In this document: positions 1-5,062 of the stretch, one piece after another | How the letters are laid out: every line of letters begins with the position of its first letter | Numbering within the stretch: position 1 is the stretch's first letter | DNA from: Candidatus Bathyarchaeia archaeon | Lineage (GTDB): Archaea; Thermoproteota; Bathyarchaeia; Bathyarchaeales; Bathycorpusculaceae | Assembly (NCBI GenBank): GCA_038883715.1 | Contig: JAVZLS010000013.1 | Location: 1-41,145, forward strand | Direction: 5' to 3' | DNA length: 41,145 nucleotides | Translations under genes and position numbers: made by a program | The notes under the pieces: generated by a model | Seen by the model: the letters and a program-made list of their open reading frames with translations, nothing else | Database searches by the model: none | Told to the model about the DNA's origin: nothing

Positions 1-1160
1 TTCATGTAATCGGGATACCAAACAACCTCATGGGCTTCCTTTTCTACACGGTCTGTTAGGATGCGGGTTTTCATAAACCACTGTTTGCGCTCCAAAATTT
101 CTATTGGCGTTTCGCATCTTTGGCATATGCCTATCTCCTGCCTTATAGACTCAATTTTTTCTAGAAGCCCTTCAGCCCTCAAATCCTCTACTATGGCTTT
201 TCTGGCTTCTTCGACCGTTAAGCCCTTATATTTTCCGCCGTTCTCGTTTATCAGCCCATTTTCAGTCAGAATTGTGATTACGGGCAAGTTATGCCTTTTA
301 ACGGTGCGGACGTCCTCCTTGTCGCCGTAGGTGCAAATCATAACAACGCCAGTGCCGAAGGATGGATCAACAGCGTCATCTTGGATAATCCCCACATTGC
401 GGTTCACAATTGGCACTTTTATGCGTTTTCCGATGTATTTGTTGTAGCGGGTGTCTGTTGGGTTTACGGCCACAGCTACACATGCCGGTATAAACTCTGG
501 TCGGGTTGTGGCTATGAGAAGGTGTCCGCCACCATCTGCCAATGGAAATCTTATGTAGTGTAGCTTGCCTTCCCGCTCTTCATACTCCACTTCAGCATCT
601 GCAATGGCAGTTTCACATCTTGGACACCAGTTGACCGGATGTGTGCCCTGATAAATGTATCCCTTCTTGTAGAGGATTATGAAGCTCAGCTGGGTTCTCC
701 GCCAATAATCCGGGTCCATGGTGCGGTATTCCGTTGTCCAATCAACGCTGCATCCAAGCCTTACAATGCCCTCCCTCATCATGGCAATATATTTCTCAAT
801 AAGCTGCATGCACAAACTGCGAAACTTGTCAGGCGGCAGGTCTCGCTTACGAATGTTGTGCTCTCTTTCCACCTGAACTTCTATGCCTAAACCGTGGCAG
901 TCCCACCCCTGCGGGAAATAGACATTGTAGCCTCTCATGCGTTTATATCTGGCGACTATGTCAAAATAGGTCCAGTTTAGGACGTTCCCCATGTGGAACT
1001 CGCCGGAAGGATAAGGCGGCGGAGTGTCAATGCTGAAGACTGGAAGCTTATTATCTTTCCAGTCGAAACGGTATATACCCCAATCTTCCCAACGCTTCTG
1101 CCACTTCCGCTCAATAGCCAATATGTCAAACTCATTTGGCAAAGGCTTCATACTAGACAT
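1..1160 (-). CDS. valS: valyl-tRNA synthetase, N-terminal part; runs off the window edge and is absent from the ORF track
   Basis: Manual translation MSSMKPLPNEFDILAIERKWQKRWEDWGIYRF..IDTPPPYPSGEFHMGN (HIGH-like)..QGWDCHG..VNWCPRCETAIADAEV..ATTRPE..FGTGVVMICTYGD..QWF; open to base 1. Confidence 0.95.
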   Translation of the reverse strand, partial: MSSMKPLPNEFDILAIERKWQKRWEDWGIYRFDWKDNKLPVFSIDTPPPYPSGEFHMGNVLNWTYFDIVARYKRMRGYNVYFPQGWDCHGLGIEVQVEREHNIRKRDLPPDKFRSLCMQLIEKYIAMMREGIVRLGCSVDWTTEYRTMDPDYWRRTQLSFIILYKKGYIYQGTHPVNWCPRCETAIADAEVEYEEREGKLHYIRFPLADGGGHLLIATTRPEFIPACVAVAVNPTDTRYNKYIGKRIKVPIVNRNVGIIQDDAVDPSFGTGVVMICTYGDKEDVRTVKRHNLPVITILTENGLINENGGKYKGLTVEEARKAIVEDLRAEGLLEKIESIRQEIGICQRCETPIEILERKQWFMKTRILTDRVEKEAHEVVWYPDYM

Positions 1161-1180
1161 CCTAACAAACTTCGACTTTA

Positions 1181-1196
1181 GGAAAGATAAATATAC
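1181..1196 (+). promoter_or_regulatory. putative BRE/TATA promoter for the riboswitch-thiC transcript, in the divergent valS/thiC spacer
   Basis: GGAAAGATAAATATA about 20-30 nt upstream of the riboswitch leader. Confidence 0.5.
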
Positions 1197-1210: not shown

Positions 1211-1324
1211 TACTCCGCTCAAGGGTTTGGGGGAGCTGGGCGGTGACCCGGCTGAGAGGACGGCTGAGCGCCGTCGACCCTTAGAACCTGATCCGGGTAA
1301 TGCCGGCGGAGGGAAAATGGAGTG
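1211..1324 (+). ncRNA. TPP (THI-box) riboswitch
   Basis: Canonical order GGGG..GCTGAGA..GACCC..GAACCTGATCCGGGTAATGCCGGCGGAGGGA; P3 GCTGGG/CCCGGC, P3a GACGGC/GCCGTC, P5 CCGG/CCGG; directly upstream of thiC. Confidence 0.95.
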
Positions 1325-1392
1325 AACAGAGGTGCCTTCAAACTTCTCTAAACAAATAATAACAGTTCATTCCAGTTTCTGGAGGGTTTTAA

Positions 1393-2694
1393 TTGACAAC
1401 GCAGATGGAGGCAGCTAGGAGAGGGCAAATAACCGAGGAAATGCGAATAGTTGCAGAGGACGAAGGCGAATCTCCCCAAGCCCTTTGCCAGCGCATAGCA
1501 CAAGGCACCGTCATAATAACTCGCAACATTAAACGGGAAAACGTTCACCCGGTGGGGATTGGCAAAGGCTTACGCACAAAGGTTAACGCCAACATTGGCA
1601 CAAGTCCAGACCTATGCAACCTAAACTTGGAAATCGAGAAGGCCAAGGTTGCCGTCAAATATGGCGCCGACACCATTATGGATTTAAGCACAGCTGGCGA
1701 CTTGGACGAAATAAGAAGAGCCATAATCAAGGCTGTAAATGTGCCCATTGGAACAGTGCCGATTTATCAGGCAGCCATAGAAGCTACGAAAAAGAGGGGC
1801 GCAATAATCCACATGACAGAAGACGACATATTCAACACCATAGAGAAACACGCCAAAGACGGCGTTGACTTCATGACCGTGCACTGCGGCGTCACACAAC
1901 AAATCGTCAAAAAACTCGCGAAGCATCCTAGGCTCATGGGGGTTGTAAGCCGTGGCGGAACATTCCTAGCCGCTTGGATACTCCACCACGACAAAGAAAA
2001 CCCATTATACGCCAACTATGATTACCTTTTGGAACTGGCTAAAAAATACGATTTTGCCCTAAGCCTAGGAGACGGCTTAAGGCCGGGCTGCATATTTGAC
2101 TCCACAGACTGGGCTCAAATTCAAGAGCTGCTAACAATCGGAGAGCTTGTAGAAAGGGCGAGGGACGCAAACGTTCAAGTCATGGTGGAGGGACCCGGCC
2201 ATCTGCCATTAAACGATGTGGCTGCCAACGTTCAGCTTGAAAAATCCATATGCAAGGATGCACCCTTCTACGTGCTTGGTCCAGTTGTCACCGAGATAGC
2301 GCCTGGATACGACCACATTGTTGGAGCTATAGGCGGAGCGTTGGCTGGTTTGGCAGGCGCCGACTTCCTATGCTACTTGACACCGGCGGAGCATCTAGGA
2401 CTGCCAAGCCTAGAAGATGTTAAAGAGGGCGTTATAGCCACAAAAATTGCTGCTCATGCCGCTGACATTGCAAAGCTTGGAGCAAAAGCCGCTGCACGGG
2501 ACCTAGCTATGGCTAAGGCTAGGGCGAATCTCGACTGGAAGGGACAGTTTGAGAATGCCATCGACCCGGAAAAGGCGAAAAAGGTTCATGGACGCATAAA
2601 GCCGAAAAGTCCTGAAACATGCTCCATGTGCTCTGAATATTGCGCCATAAAAATTTTGAAGGAAGCCTTAAAGGCGGAGGGACAATGCCTATGA
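1393..2694 (+). CDS. thiC: phosphomethylpyrimidine synthase ThiC
   Basis: TKVNANIGTS, MDLST, SRGG, LGDGLRPG, EGPGH, YLTPAEHL, C-terminal CSMCSEYC; GGAGG SD and TTG start. Confidence 0.97.
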   Translation: MTTQMEAARRGQITEEMRIVAEDEGESPQALCQRIAQGTVIITRNIKRENVHPVGIGKGLRTKVNANIGTSPDLCNLNLEIEKAKVAVKYGADTIMDLSTAGDLDEIRRAIIKAVNVPIGTVPIYQAAIEATKKRGAIIHMTEDDIFNTIEKHAKDGVDFMTVHCGVTQQIVKKLAKHPRLMGVVSRGGTFLAAWILHHDKENPLYANYDYLLELAKKYDFALSLGDGLRPGCIFDSTDWAQIQELLTIGELVERARDANVQVMVEGPGHLPLNDVAANVQLEKSICKDAPFYVLGPVVTEIAPGYDHIVGAIGGALAGLAGADFLCYLTPAEHLGLPSLEDVKEGVIATKIAAHAADIAKLGAKAAARDLAMAKARANLDWKGQFENAIDPEKAKKVHGRIKPKSPETCSMCSEYCAIKILKEALKAEGQCL

Positions 2695-4052
2695 AAAGCC
2701 GAATTCCGGTGGCAATAACGATTGCTGGTAGTGACTCTGGTGGTGGCGCTGGAATTCAAGCAGACTTAAAGACTTTTGCGGCTTTAGGAGTCCATGGAAC
2801 AGTTGCCATCACCTCTATCACGGCTCAAAACACTTATGCTGTCCGAGCTGTTCAAGACTTGAAGCCAGAAATCGTCAGCGAACAGATTAGAGCTGTAGCC
2901 GAAGATTTTTGCATTGATGCTGGAAAAACAGGCATGCTCCACACGGATGAAATCATAAAAGCTGTGGCTTCAGAAGTCTCCAAATACAATTTTCCACTAG
3001 TTGTGGACCCGGTGATGGTAGCGAAGTCTGGTGCACCACTGCTAAAGCCCGAAGCCATAAACGCCCTAAAAGAGCATTTGCTTCCCTTAGCGACCGTCGT
3101 TACTCCCAACAGATTTGAGGCTGAAAGGCTCTCCGGCATTGAGATACAAAGCCTAAGGGAGGCTGAAAATGCCGCCAAGAAAATCTCCAAGATGGGACCG
3201 GAGGCTGTTGTGGTTAAGGGTGGACACATCGAAGGCGCAGAGGTAACAGACATCCTCTATTATAAAGGTAAGTTTCGGCGTTTCACATCGCCTAGACTGG
3301 ATGAAAAAACCACACATGGAACTGGATGCAGCTTCTCAGCTGCCATAGCCGCTGGACTTGCCAAAAAATTGGGCGTCCCAGAGGCTGTTGAAAACGCCAA
3401 GAACTTTGTGGCTTTAAGCATAAAGTTTGGCTTAAAAATTGGGAAGGGTTACGGTCCAGTTAATCCTATGGCTTATCTCTATCGCGAAGCCTCGAGGTAT
3501 GAGGTTTTGCTCAACTTGGAGGAAGCCAAGAACCTTTTGGAAACGCATCCAGAAGTTGCAGAGCTTATTCCAGAAGTGGGCATGAACGTTGCCATGGCTG
3601 TCAGATATGCTGAAAGTGTTAATGATGTTGCCGCCATAGACGGAAGAATCGTCAGAACATCAAGCGGTGTTAAGGCTGCCGGAAACCCGAAGTTTGGGTG
3701 TTCCCGCCACCTAGCCAAGTATTTAGTTGAAATTGTTAGGCACGATGAGGATAAGAGGGCTGCAATAAACCTAAGGTTTTCAGAGGAAACCTTGAAAATT
3801 TTGGAGAAACGCGGTTTAACTGTATCCTTTTATGATCGCTCAAAAGAGCCTGAAGAAATCAAGAAGATTGAGGGTATGACCATACCTTGGGGTGTGAAAG
3901 AAGCCATAAAAAATGTTGGAAAAGTACCAGATGTGATATATCATAGGGGCGACGTTGGGAAGGAGCCCATGATAGTTGTTTTTGGTAGGGACGCCCTTTC
4001 CTTGGTTAAAATGGTCGTGGAAATTGCTGGAGGGAAAAAGGGCGATGCATAG
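2691..4052 (+). CDS. thiDN: bifunctional HMP/HMP-P kinase - thiamine-phosphate synthase (ThiD-ThiN fusion)
   Basis: IAGSDSGGGAGIQADLKT, VVDPVM, HGTGCSFSA; C-terminal ThiN domain (IPEVGMN, FGCSRHLA, GDVGKEPM); ATGA overlap with the thiC stop. Confidence 0.95.
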   Translation: MKSRIPVAITIAGSDSGGGAGIQADLKTFAALGVHGTVAITSITAQNTYAVRAVQDLKPEIVSEQIRAVAEDFCIDAGKTGMLHTDEIIKAVASEVSKYNFPLVVDPVMVAKSGAPLLKPEAINALKEHLLPLATVVTPNRFEAERLSGIEIQSLREAENAAKKISKMGPEAVVVKGGHIEGAEVTDILYYKGKFRRFTSPRLDEKTTHGTGCSFSAAIAAGLAKKLGVPEAVENAKNFVALSIKFGLKIGKGYGPVNPMAYLYREASRYEVLLNLEEAKNLLETHPEVAELIPEVGMNVAMAVRYAESVNDVAAIDGRIVRTSSGVKAAGNPKFGCSRHLAKYLVEIVRHDEDKRAAINLRFSEETLKILEKRGLTVSFYDRSKEPEEIKKIEGMTIPWGVKEAIKNVGKVPDVIYHRGDVGKEPMIVVFGRDALSLVKMVVEIAGGKKGDA

Positions 4053-4264: not shown

Positions 4265-5062
4265 ATGGCTGAAAAGATCAGGGAAGTTGAAGAGGAAGTC
4301 ATAACAAGGGCGATAATCCGGAAAGCTATGGAAGACTGGATAGACTTGGCTGAAACAGACGTTGTCGTTGTTGGGGCTGGCCCTTCTGGTTTGACGGCGG
4401 CAAGACACTTGGCAAAGGCTGGACTGAAAACTGTTGTCTTTGAGAGGAAGCTCTCCTTTGGCGGCGGAATAGGCGGCGGAGGCATGCAGTTCCACAAAAT
4501 TGTTGTGCAATCGCCGGCAGACAAAATTCTCCGGGAAGTGGGCTGCAAACTTGAGCCTTTAGAGAAGGGACTCTTCATCGTGGACACGGCTGACATGATG
4601 GCTAAGCTGGCTTGCGGCGCCATTGACGCCGGGGCAAAAATAATTTTGGGCGTAACCGTTGACGACCTAATATATCGCGATTCGCCTACAAAGGTTGTTG
4701 GCGTTGTTGTCCAGTGGACATCGGTCATTATGGCTGGCATCCACGTTGACCCATTGGCTGTTAAAGCTAAGGCTGTCATTGACTGCACTGGTCATGATGC
4801 AGAAGTTCTCGCTGTAGCCTCTAGAAAAATTCCAGAACTGGGAATCACTATTCAAGGCGAAAAATCCATGTGGTCGTCCCGCGCCGAAGAGCTAACAGTC
4901 AAAAATACCAGGGAAGTTTGTCCTGGACTTTTTGCCGCGGGAATGGCTGTAGCCGCCATAGACCAGGCGCCACGTATGGGACCAATATTTGGAGGCATGC
5001 TCCTCAGCGGCGAAAAGGTTGCGCAGCTGGTTATAGAGAAACTAAAGGGCAAGGGCGCCTAA
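4265..5062 (+). CDS. thi4: thiazole synthase Thi4, His-type (sulfide-dependent)
   Basis: [21 protein letters not shown] (His in place of the yeast suicide Cys), [20 protein letters not shown]. Confidence 0.95.

Follow-up and report, generated by a model that had tools for sequence, protein, structure and literature searches.

A TPP riboswitch ahead of thiC-thiDN in a Bathyarchaeia archaeon and its proposed translational OFF switch

The leader of the thiC-thiDN genes in the window (the whole stretch of DNA analysed, 41,145 nucleotides) carries a complete TPP aptamer and is almost certainly a genuine TPP riboswitch governing thiC. The leader is best read, by analogy, as a translational OFF switch of the E. 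coli thiM type, in which a conserved hairpin directly 3′ of the aptamer would decide whether the Shine-Dalgarno (SD) sequence of thiC is free. The full statement, that a TPP-sensing riboswitch in the thiC-thiDN leader works as this proposed OFF switch, was given an even chance, and action by SD sequestration through the helix b hairpin was put slightly below that.

Aptamer, host and gene neighbourhood

The window contained one Rfam family match, to RF00059 (TPP riboswitch, THI element), at 1219..1331 on the forward strand with 70.0 bits against a gathering score of 54.3 and an E value of 6.6e-12. The match was full length (model positions 1-105 of 105, not truncated) and was the only one to RF00059 in the 1.33-Mb genome. 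A TPP riboswitch had been proposed at this place in an earlier reading made from the sequence alone, together with an RF00059 search, which has now confirmed it. The structured core covers 1225-1318, with P1 formed by 1225-1228/1315-1318 and P2-P5 lying within it, and the thiC start is 62 nt past the end of the match. The conserved CUGAGA and ACCUGAUC...GCG.AGGGA segments are present; GG stands before AGGGA, and the aptamer thus contains GGAGG, an SD-like word.

Helix conservation was assessed on 19 aligned related leaders with 500 shuffles as controls. The aptamer arm helices P2 to P5 were paired in 97.4%, 100%, 100% and 86.8% of cells, with two-sided changes in three of the four. Pairing over the whole structure, a count that also includes helices a, h and c described below, was reached by 0/500 shuffles. 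P1 consists of only four pairs, one G-U and three U-A, with one position G-G; its pairs were 84-91% paired in relatives and their covariation was not above control. The element is a further member of the known TPP riboswitch class, with which it shares the P2-P5 arms, the conserved segments and a place upstream of a thiamine gene. It differs from the class in its Bathyarchaeia host, its 4-pair P1 and the SD-like GGAGG within the aptamer.

The host is an uncultured hot-spring archaeon. ThiC of the window matched records titled Candidatus Bathyarchaeia at identities of 99% and 97%, and the nearest ThiC loci were in Bathyarchaeia MAGs. These identities and the adjoining ThiDN, Thi4 and archaeal-type ValRS agree with the archaeal origin assumed earlier. 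The thiC gene (phosphomethylpyrimidine synthase, 1393..2694, forward strand) has a TTG start and scored 661.9 bits with NF009895 (cut-off 410) and 661.8 with TIGR00190 (cut-off 460); the BzaB model scored 603, under its cut-off of 700. It is followed on the same strand by thiDN (2640..4052; HMP/HMP-P kinase fused to a ThiN thiamine-phosphate synthase domain; NF006346 650.7 bits, with PF08543 and PF10120) and by thi4 (sulfide-dependent ADP-thiazole synthase, 4265..5062; TIGR00292 336.7 bits). The NF006346 match begins at residue 20, and the actual thiDN start is probably later than 2640. The profile matches uphold the placing of the riboswitch before thiC-thiDN, and thi4 is probably led by it as well. 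The divergent neighbour valS (valine--tRNA ligase, 3..1160, reverse strand) is represented by its 5′ part only; it matched NF009687 with 529 bits over residues 4-386, a score under the full-length cut-off because the frame ends at the window edge.

Archaeal thiamine genes are usually regulated by ThiR, a transcription factor in which a DNA-binding domain is fused to a ThiN domain. The genome search for thiR suggested in the sequence-only reading was run on the host genome (90.3% complete) and returned no ThiR; the single PF10120 (ThiN) match lay within the window ThiDN. No ThiR was found in the 41 genomes searched, the host included, each of which had at most one ThiN domain. Twenty genomes had a ThiN match, one apiece, 19 of them in frames of 416-500 aa and the 20th (268 aa) at a contig end. 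The target pathway is that of the ThiR regulon, but neither the host genome nor the 40 relatives showed a second ThiN-domain gene. The ThiT importer was likewise absent from the host genome in a search at the same completeness.

Transcription start and the proposed switch

A conserved BRE/TATA-like block at 1177..1196 on the forward strand, with a TATA-like octamer at 1188-1195, is the putative promoter. The block precedes thiC-type and thiT-type leaders in relatives, and a TATA-like box was located 26-40 nt upstream of P2 in 42 of 44 related leaders. A passage in PMC4247193 places archaeal transcription starts about 23 bp downstream of the TATA box and gives a median TATA-to-TSS spacing of 23 bp for T. 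kodakarensis. On this spacing, the most likely start of transcription lies near 1217-1221, roughly 23 nt past the conserved TATA box. Pyrimidine-purine steps fall in this zone at G1217, +22 from the TATA end, and at A1221, +26 from it. The RNA would then begin only a few bases ahead of the short P1. A calibration on leaderless genes of the host genome gave no 23-28 nt peak among 1156 candidate starts, with spacing counts climbing only at about 31 nt and beyond; leaders in this genome appear to be short and to bear an SD, so that leaderless-gene spacing could not serve as calibration. Two raw-read metatranscriptomes (X5, X8) contained 0 reads for the locus. Two contig sets (X1, X2), probably derived from DNA, are uninformative on the start site.

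The sequence-only reading described three helices, a, b and c, around the aptamer end and the SD, and each of its segments was located exactly where it had put them: TACTCCG at 1211-1217, TGGAGTG at 1318-1324, TGGAGTGAAC at 1318-1327, GTTCATTCCA at 1365-1374, TTCCAGTTTCTGGAG at 1370-1384, GGAGG at 1381-1385 and TTG at 1393-1395. Helix b joins the SD-like strand at 1318..1327 to the strand at 1365..1374, which contains the anti-SD TTCC (both forward strand). Its duplex energy of -15.1 kcal/mol was reached by 2/3000 shuffles of either strand region. Among the 19 aligned leaders, 73.6% of cells paired (1/500 shuffles as high) and 14 cells were changed on both sides (0/500 shuffles match). Close relatives showed compensatory U-A to C-G and C-G to U-A changes, and the helix was out of register in five more distant leaders (L018, L034, L036, L038 and L045). 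Helix b is a real conserved pairing, beyond chance, and this part of the sequence-only reading stands.

Helix b encloses a linker hairpin, h, at 1328..1347 (forward strand; 1328-1333 with 1342-1347) with a conserved pyrimidine-rich loop at 1334-1341. The hairpin was present in MFE folds and was paired in 87.6% of cells, with 8/500 shuffles as high; its covariation score was reached by 5/500. In the MFE fold the base of helix b was extended by 1313-1316/1376-1379, replacing P1. The 5′ strand of helix b overlaps P1 by 1 nt (U1318), or by 5 nt if this extension is counted.

The SD of thiC, GGAGG at 1381..1385 on the forward strand, lies 7 nt ahead of the TTG start and was invariant or nearly so in the 19 leaders. 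Two pyrimidine tracts can reach it. The first forms helix c (1370..1384, forward strand), in which TTCCAG and CTGGAG close over a TTT loop and cover the SD; the coordinates show that b and c exclude one another, as had been claimed. The complementarity of helix c is present in the sequence, but the SD-hiding hairpin that the sequence-only reading saw in it is no commoner here than at other SDs of the genome: of 173 GGAGG-led candidate starts, 22 (13%) had a local hairpin of at least 6 bp over the SD, and helix c is 6 bp. It showed no two-sided change, its pairing was matched by 290/500 shuffles in the 19 leaders, and sliding its partner by -1 gave 80.7% paired against 84.2% in register. Helix c is not above chance or genome background and cannot covary. 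The second tract, at 1344..1350 on the forward strand, can pair with 1380-1386 to form helix d, which was chosen by RNAalifold unprompted. Its six pairs were standard in 18-19 of the 19 leaders with no two-sided change, and covariation therefore cannot test it.

The proposed mechanism has two states. Without TPP, the long imperfect hairpin of b and h, conserved directly 3′ of P1, would extend at its base into the A-run of the P1 3′ strand (1313-1316/1376-1379), sequestering this strand together with the pyrimidine anti-SD that the 3′ strand of helix b carries, and would leave GGAGG free. With TPP, P1 would close, the hairpin base would be lost and a pyrimidine tract (1370-1375, or 1344-1350) would pair with the SD. 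We infer where transcription starts, which way the switch works and that P1 is coupled to helix b, the last in the window from the overlap of only 1 to 5 nt.

The translational TPP riboswitch of E. coli thiM is an anti-SD/anti-anti-SD platform. The window resembles it in that a pyrimidine anti-SD stands upstream of the SD and an SD-like decoy just past P1, in helices c and b; helix b provides a conserved decoy strand pairing with the anti-SD, whereas helix c is not an anti-SD helix beyond the genome norm. The window differs from thiM in that its decoy overlaps P1 by so few nucleotides, in that its models show no ligand coupling and in that its host has an archaeal promoter and ribosome. The relative L102 has the full P1/decoy overlap of thiM. 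Its P1 is 9 bp (-13.5 kcal/mol), with a 3′ strand that overlaps the 5′ strand of helix b by 4 nt; helix b pairs at 9/10 positions and its 3′ strand bears the same anti-SD. As read from its sequence, L102 would give a clean P1/b/c exclusion without helix a.

In nearest-neighbour models of the window, helix b persisted alongside the Rfam P1 when the aptamer was enforced, and folding therefore gives no support for TPP coupling. From a 1217 start, enforcing the aptamer took the SD-unpaired probability from 0.52 to 0.65 at 37°C and from 0.46 to 0.49 at 70°C; at 65°C the window went from 0.52 to 0.53. Models of the window sequence showed no TPP-dependent fall in SD exposure, which runs against the earlier claim that TPP would hide the SD: enforcing the aptamer left the modelled accessibility of the window unchanged. 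Among the 19 leaders, which are kin and not independent, the enforced aptamer lowered the SD-unpaired probability in 17 at 65°C. With the aptamer folded, b and h together gave -42.7 kcal/mol, equal to or better than every SD-sequestering alternative (-42.7 with helix a, -39.7 with the substitute P1 extension a′, -37.2 for c alone and -29.3 with d, all in kcal/mol).

Four further candidates were rejected. An upstream ORF, ATG GAG TGA at 1317-1325, begins with ACG in four leaders (L008, L014, L043 and L044). A GTG-initiated frame from 1332 is broken in L043 by the loss of 1 nt and lacks a start codon in L036 and L038. Pairing of AAGG (1221-1224) with CCUU of the hairpin h loop showed one apparent compensatory change (L054 against L056), with a flanking pair that by eye was mismatched in most leaders. 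Pairing of the SD with the P2 3′ strand (1276-1282/1383-1389), present in the unconstrained MFE fold, has the wrong regulatory sign and was not conserved in L010.

Alternative readings of the leader

The alternative that survives best, although unlikely, is transcriptional control. Here b and h followed by a U-run immediately ahead of the SD would be a premature terminator favoured by TPP, intrinsic at oligo-U or factor-dependent, and without TPP a pairing of the G-rich P1/P2 5′ strand (1223-1233) with 1335-1345 would block the hairpin. The sign is right, as b and h coexist with the folded aptamer and stack on P1, and a run of 4-6 U directly follows the 3′ strand of helix b in 14/19 related leaders (by eye); the window, however, has just TTTCT at this place, the weakest U-run of the group. 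An 11-bp complementarity does join 1223-1233 to 1335-1345, and such a pairing would account for the conservation of the h loop, but it was at chance level (902/3000 shuffles, 665/1003 other 60-mers, 59/500 for an extended version) and lacked covariation. Clear anti-aptamer strands were found in the other thiC leader type, where 3/500 (L041), 1/500 (L042) and 0/500 (L053) shuffles were as good. Archaeal termination requires oligo-T and is not known to depend on a hairpin, which also counts against a terminator.

Less probable again is that the aptamer binds TPP but is followed by about 65 nt made up largely of intergenic DNA and the remains of a displaced thiT 5′ end, with thiC controlled weakly or by another route such as RNA stability. 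The same genus has an identical promoter and aptamer fused straight to thiT, the thiC leader of L102 retains a thiT-type P1 3′ strand and a TTG AAT start, and the window keeps the non-conserved ATG GAG TGA; the flat modelled SD exposure of the window would also fit. Against a relic speak the compensatory changes with which helices b and h have been conserved, the retention of the platform across 19 distinct leaders down to a ThiC identity of about 85%, and the absence of ThiR with no other thiamine regulator in view.

The mechanism of the sequence-only reading is improbable, ranking just behind the relic. In it the RNA begins at 1211 or before, TPP stabilises helix a across an 8-nt bulge and so frees helix c (OFF), and helix b forms in the absence of TPP (ON). 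All three complementarities exist, and a+h+c and P1+h+b are isoenergetic (-42.7 against -42.7 kcal/mol at 37°C, -15.1 against -15.7 at 65°C), giving the balance required of a switch. Helix a (1211-1217/1318-1324) nevertheless did not rise above chance. Its duplex energy of -10.0 kcal/mol was equalled by 455/3000 shuffles of the 5′ flank, 705/3000 of the 3′ flank and 245/1112 other 29-mers of the window. In the 19-leader alignment 78.6% of its cells paired and four pairs were changed on both sides, but the percentage paired was reached by 76/500 shuffles and the score by 63/500. The substitute extension a′ (1217-1220/1320-1323) was rejected as well: it was 73.6% paired, and with P1 137/500 shuffles were as high.

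The 5′ strand of helix a (1211..1217, forward strand), TACTCCG, ends at +21/+22 from the TATA end. L043 retains it although 3 nt between a and P1 are lost, which favours the helix. The strand was, however, equally conserved in thiT leaders from the same genus in which a complementary 3′ strand is missing (L003-L005), and unrelated promoters of the group have similar pyrimidine runs with ends at +21 to +25. It is probably a pyrimidine-rich stretch just upstream of the start and outside the RNA, as the conserved TATA box implies; at the spacing of about 23 bp given in a passage of PMC4247193, 6-7 of its 7 bases would be untranscribed. A start downstream of about 1218 would remove helix a, by the sequence-only reading's own account, and because the start is predicted near 1217-1221 this is probably so, or nearly so. 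P1 is moreover kept in both states, which leaves TPP without obvious means to favour a over b, and constrained folds from 5′ ends 1205 or 1211 still picked b. Of the on/off mechanism first described, helix b and its exclusion of c hold, and helix a as a TPP-coupled extension of P1 and helix c as more than a chance hairpin find no support.

A chance or decayed, functionless THI-box look-alike, for which the weak 4-bp P1 alone speaks, is hardly credible beside a full-length match at this E value, covariation in the aptamer arms and retention in 26/41 related genomes, always ahead of thiC or thiT.

Distribution in relatives and archaeal context

RF00059 matches were found in 26 of the 41 related genomes (25 above the cut-off), including 19 of 24 from the same family. 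They were always upstream of thiC or of a Thia_YuaJ (thiT) gene, and an RF00059 match upstream of thiC was confirmed in 21/21 regex-positive loci tested. Two forms occurred, a thiC leader as in the window and a thiT leader that lacks an expression platform. In metagenomes, 119 stretches matched a degenerate P4/P5 pattern, and the window-type platform was seen in 0 of the 80 loci inspected from that list. By eye, the loci matching this pattern were mostly bacterial-looking.

These two forms suggest, tentatively, that Bathyarchaeia re-use one conserved promoter and TPP-aptamer module as a cassette. In one use, seen in certain species of the genus, the module would be fused to thiT without a platform, the GGAGGG of the aptamer serving as SD 5-10 nt before a start that abuts P1; in the other, in sister species that include the host, it would drive thiC-thiDN by way of an additional platform some 65 nt long, derived partly from the displaced thiT 5′ end.

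TPP riboswitches have long been known, including from some archaea. Those of archaea are best known from Thermoplasmata (Thermoplasmatales), which the window resembles in having an archaeal host and thiamine-related downstream genes; here the host belongs to Thermoproteota/Bathyarchaeia, and the genes are the biosynthesis operon thiC-thiDN and, in relatives, the ThiT transporter. Counts of archaeal riboswitches given in a part of PMC5473149 are 79 for Euryarchaeota, 6 for Crenarchaeota and 1 each for Korarchaeota and Thaumarchaeota. Full-text literature searches, whose coverage leaves out most subscription journals, found no paper linking a TPP riboswitch with Bathyarchaeota. According to a statement in PMC8241225, the Thermococcus kodakarensis fluoride riboswitch was, as of 2021, the sole natural riboswitch of archaea to have been determined experimentally, and on that statement there is no archaeal TPP riboswitch mechanism to serve as reference. 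The fluoride riboswitch and the window element are both natural archaeal riboswitches and differ in ligand and fold.

How archaeal riboswitches shut genes off is essentially untested ground. The locus shows a family-level group of Bathyarchaeia using the TPP aptamer for thiamine genes, which is no surprise in kind, and its comparable leaders of two or three designs make a reasonable in vitro system. If the cassette is true, the natural pair of leaders would allow a direct test of whether an archaeal riboswitch acts on translation or on termination.

The aptamer and its gene neighbourhood

The seven motifs named in the sequence-only reading were all found in the window at their coordinates, and its identification of a TPP riboswitch was borne out. 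RF00059 (TPP riboswitch) matched at 1219-1331 (+), scoring 70.0 bits (E 6.6e-12; gathering score 54.3) and spanning model positions 1-105 without truncation. This was the sole Rfam 15 match across the 41,145-base window and the only RF00059 match in its genome (G000; 1.33 Mb, 41 contigs, 90.3% complete). The aptamer belongs to RF00059 on all sequence-level criteria that could be tested, with the P1 criterion alone marginal.

thiC (1393-2694, TTG start) and thiDN (2640-4052, PF08543 + PF10120) lie 3' of the aptamer as originally placed, followed by thi4 (4265-5062), and valS is divergent on the 5' side. ThiC matched NF009895 and TIGR00190 with 661.9 and 661.8 bits, both above cut-offs, and the BzaB model scored below its own cut-off. 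The thiDN frame as listed shares 55 nt with the 3' end of thiC (2640-2694); as the family match begins only at residue 20, the real start probably lies immediately 3' of the thiC stop. Between thiDN and thi4 there are 213 nt, and thi4 may be transcribed from a promoter of its own. The host is an archaeon, as had been read, and belongs to Bathyarchaeia, since the nearest ThiC-encoding loci among the matches listed from a species-representative collection (99% and 97% identical) belong to records titled Candidatus Bathyarchaeia archaeon.

Two leader types among relatives

In a set of 41 related genomes, G000 among them, RF00059 was found at E ≤ 0.001 in 26 (25 above cut-off), and in 19 of the 24 genomes of the same family, using stricter filters that may overlook weak matches. 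Genomes G025, G026, G028, G034, G035, G037 and G038, of the same order, contain thiC but neither an RF00059 match nor a second ThiN domain. From the same collection, 80 of 89 confirmed ThiC loci were taken; a simple aptamer regular expression was positive 5' of thiC in 29. Infernal confirmed all 21 regex-positive loci tested and gave one further match (L059) among 19 regex-negative loci tested.

The RF00059 loci sort into two leader types. In the thiC-type (9 of 27 loci, including the window) thiC starts ~140 nt past the CUGAGA motif. In the thiT-type (17 loci) a membrane protein of ~175-250 aa begins right after the aptamer; that of locus L002 is a Thia_YuaJ/ThiT (PF09515, 1e-47). A PF09515 match lay directly 3' of the riboswitch in 16 genomes, with G030 the exception where none was found. 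Locus L026 is interrupted by a contig end. No Thia_YuaJ transporter was found in G000.

The aptamer 3' segment lies 5-10 nt 5' of the start codon in 16 thiT-type leaders (L002-L007, L013, L015-L017, L019, L020, L022-L025), reading GAGGG in 15 and TAGGG in one, and the start codon abuts the 3' strand of P1, the aptamer closing helix. Inspection of the listed thiT-type sequences gave no second Shine-Dalgarno (SD)-like word between aptamer and start codon, so the ribosome-binding site would sit within the aptamer, making a switch without an expression platform. The window, compared over 1308-1319, retains the same GGAGGG and continues with a non-conserved ATG GAG TGA at 1317-1325.

Over 1161-1330 the window is nearly identical to L003, L004 and L005 of the same genus through the valS-divergent promoter block and aptamer, after which these continue into thiT, not thiC. 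Across 14 genomes of the genus, including G000, thiC was present in 7, all with a thiC-type riboswitch and none with ThiT, and ThiT in 3, none with thiC; neither was found in 4, which are 64-87% complete. The pattern looks like a cassette swap between thiamine synthesis and import. The thiC leader L102 (L102:1305-1503) retains the thiT-type 3' strand of P1 and, next to it, TTG AAT, matching the thiT start of L005, and GTGAAC at 1322-1327 of the window equals the first two thiT codons of L003 and L004. These matches suggest a displaced thiT start as the origin of the helix b 5' strand (1318-1327). In two sets of community contigs, agreement with the window stops precisely at the edges of the aptamer (1220; 1315-1317), with different flanks before 1220. 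Past ~1317 some contigs run into thiT-type sequence, so both leader types coexist in the same hot-spring samples.

Pairings of the thiC leader

The sequence-only reading had TPP stabilise helices a and c, hiding the thiC SD (GGAGG, 1381-1385), with helix b freeing it when TPP is absent. Merging identical sequences collapsed 38 leaders to 30, of which the 19 with the window's platform were aligned (A1); nine with a different platform (L041, L042, L052, L053, L054, L056, L057, L058, L095) and two unalignable 3' of the aptamer (L047, L097) were left out.

Helix b (1318-1327/1365-1374) withstood comparison. Its duplex energy of -15.1 kcal/mol was matched by 2/3000 shuffles of either side. On A1, 73.6% of cells were paired (1/500 shuffles as high), changes on both sides occurred in 14 cells (0/500) and the covariation score was 0.281 (1/500). 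The first pair changes from U-A to C-G in L008, L014, L043 and L044, the last from C-G to U-A in L009, and L102 has several double changes; the register is lost in L018, L034, L036, L038 and L045. Related sequences can outdo such shuffles without any structure, so support for helix b as a real pairing is moderate, not proof. The hairpin enclosed by it (h, 1328-1333/1342-1347) has similar, moderate support (87.6% paired, 8/500 shuffles as high; covariation 5/500).

Helix a (1211-1217/1318-1324), the proposed extension of P1, is indistinguishable from chance. Its energy was equalled in 455/3000 shuffles of the 5' flank, in 705/3000 of the 3' flank and by 245/1112 other 29-mers of the window; on A1 its 78.6% pairing was reached by 76/500 shuffles and its covariation by 63/500. 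The 5' strand lies in a conserved block formed by a TATA-like octamer (1188-1195) and its flanks. This block, TACTCCG included, also precedes L003-L005, which have no complementary 3' strand; conservation of TACTCCG therefore does not require helix a.

A TATA-like box was located 26-40 nt (mostly 29-34) 5' of P2 in 42/44 leaders, including promoters non-homologous to that of the window, and each of these leaders has a pyrimidine run that gives way to a purine at +20 to +26 from the box. The corresponding steps in the window are G1217 (+22) and A1221 (+26). In T. kodakarensis the TATA box is reported at a median of 23 bp 5' of the start site, for 96% of primary start sites (PMC4247193). Box position and this spacing place the predicted transcription start near 1217-1221, which would leave at most one base of the helix a 5' strand in the RNA. 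TATA-like octamers 5' of 1156 candidate ATG starts in G000 had no peak at 23-28 nt and rose from ~31 nt, which suggests that leaderless mRNAs are scarce and that most leaders are short and carry an SD.

For helix c, the complementarity over the SD is present as described (1370-1375/1379-1384) but is not above chance. On A1 84.2% of cells were paired, with 290/500 shuffles as high, and no changes on both sides were found in the 19 leaders. Sliding the partner by -1 left 80.7% paired, and 22/173 GGAGG-led candidate starts in G000 had a local hairpin of at least 6 bp over the SD. RNAalifold without guidance paired the SD instead with 1345-1350 (helix d), a pyrimidine tract that is conserved; the six pairs of helix d are standard in 18-19 of 19 leaders, with no double change. 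As the SD is invariant, a sequestering helix is unprovable by covariation here.

Possible coupling of platform and aptamer

The Rfam aptamer pairs enforced in folding of the window included the short P1 (1225-1228/1315-1318), comprising G1225-U1318 and three U-A pairs. With the aptamer enforced, b and h still formed directly beside P1. For a start at 1217 the SD-unpaired probability was 0.52 before and 0.65 after enforcement at 37°C (0.46 and 0.49 at 70°C); with 5' ends at 1205 or 1211 it was likewise not lowered. The models of the window do not show the proposed TPP-driven change at the SD. State energies (37°C, 1205-1400) were -42.7 kcal/mol both for aptamer + P1 + h + b and for the proposed OFF state of aptamer + a + h + c, and -39.7 kcal/mol for an OFF state with a 4-bp substitute for a, which would lie in a transcript from 1217. 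If helix a exists, these models put the two proposed states level, and since both keep P1 there is no lever for TPP. The unconstrained minimum free energy fold extended the base of b by 1313-1316/1376-1379, using the A-run of the P1 3' strand instead of P1; this competition with P1 could be such a lever.

L102 clearly shows the classical arrangement: a 9-bp P1 (-13.5 kcal/mol) whose 3' strand overlaps the helix b 5' strand by 4 nt, with 9/10 helix b positions paired and the same anti-SD on its 3' strand. At 65°C the enforced aptamer reduced SD exposure in 17/19 leaders, which are kin, the window being one of the two exceptions. Termination-based control, in which hairpin b + h and the following U-run would act as terminator, is a less likely alternative. 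The models give it the right sign, but among these leaders the window has the weakest U-run, and the anti-terminator pairing proposed for it is no better than chance. For the leader family the most likely design is a thiM-kind OFF switch that sequesters the SD; in this window its putative coupling step is weak.

A second thiC leader type (L041, L042, L053; weaker in L052, L054, L057) has a long strand just 5' of the SD complementary to the aptamer 5' half. Energies were -33 to -39 kcal/mol, with shuffles as good in 3/500 (L041), 1/500 (L042) and 0/500 (L053). The L053 strand bears UUCC facing GGAG and would make an anti-aptamer/anti-SD design clearer than that of the window.

ThiR is the usual regulator of archaeal thiamine genes, and archaeal TPP riboswitches are best known from Thermoplasmatales. 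A search of G000 for thiR gave none, its single ThiN domain lying inside the window's ThiDN, and none of the 41 genomes searched yielded a ThiR-like gene. ThiN matched in 20/41, never more than once per genome, 19 in frames of 416-500 aa and one (G007, 268 aa) at a contig end. Archaeal TPP riboswitches are recorded in general terms (PMC5473149), and the fluoride element is described as the one natural riboswitch of archaea that had been established experimentally as of 2021 (PMC8241225). A full-text search, with subscription journals mostly outside its coverage, turned up no paper on TPP riboswitches in Bathyarchaeota. The window riboswitch belongs to a class already known, and the mechanism first attached to it was over-read. 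The value of the locus lies in its comparative leader set and in the fact that we know of no archaeal TPP riboswitch whose mechanism has been tested so far.
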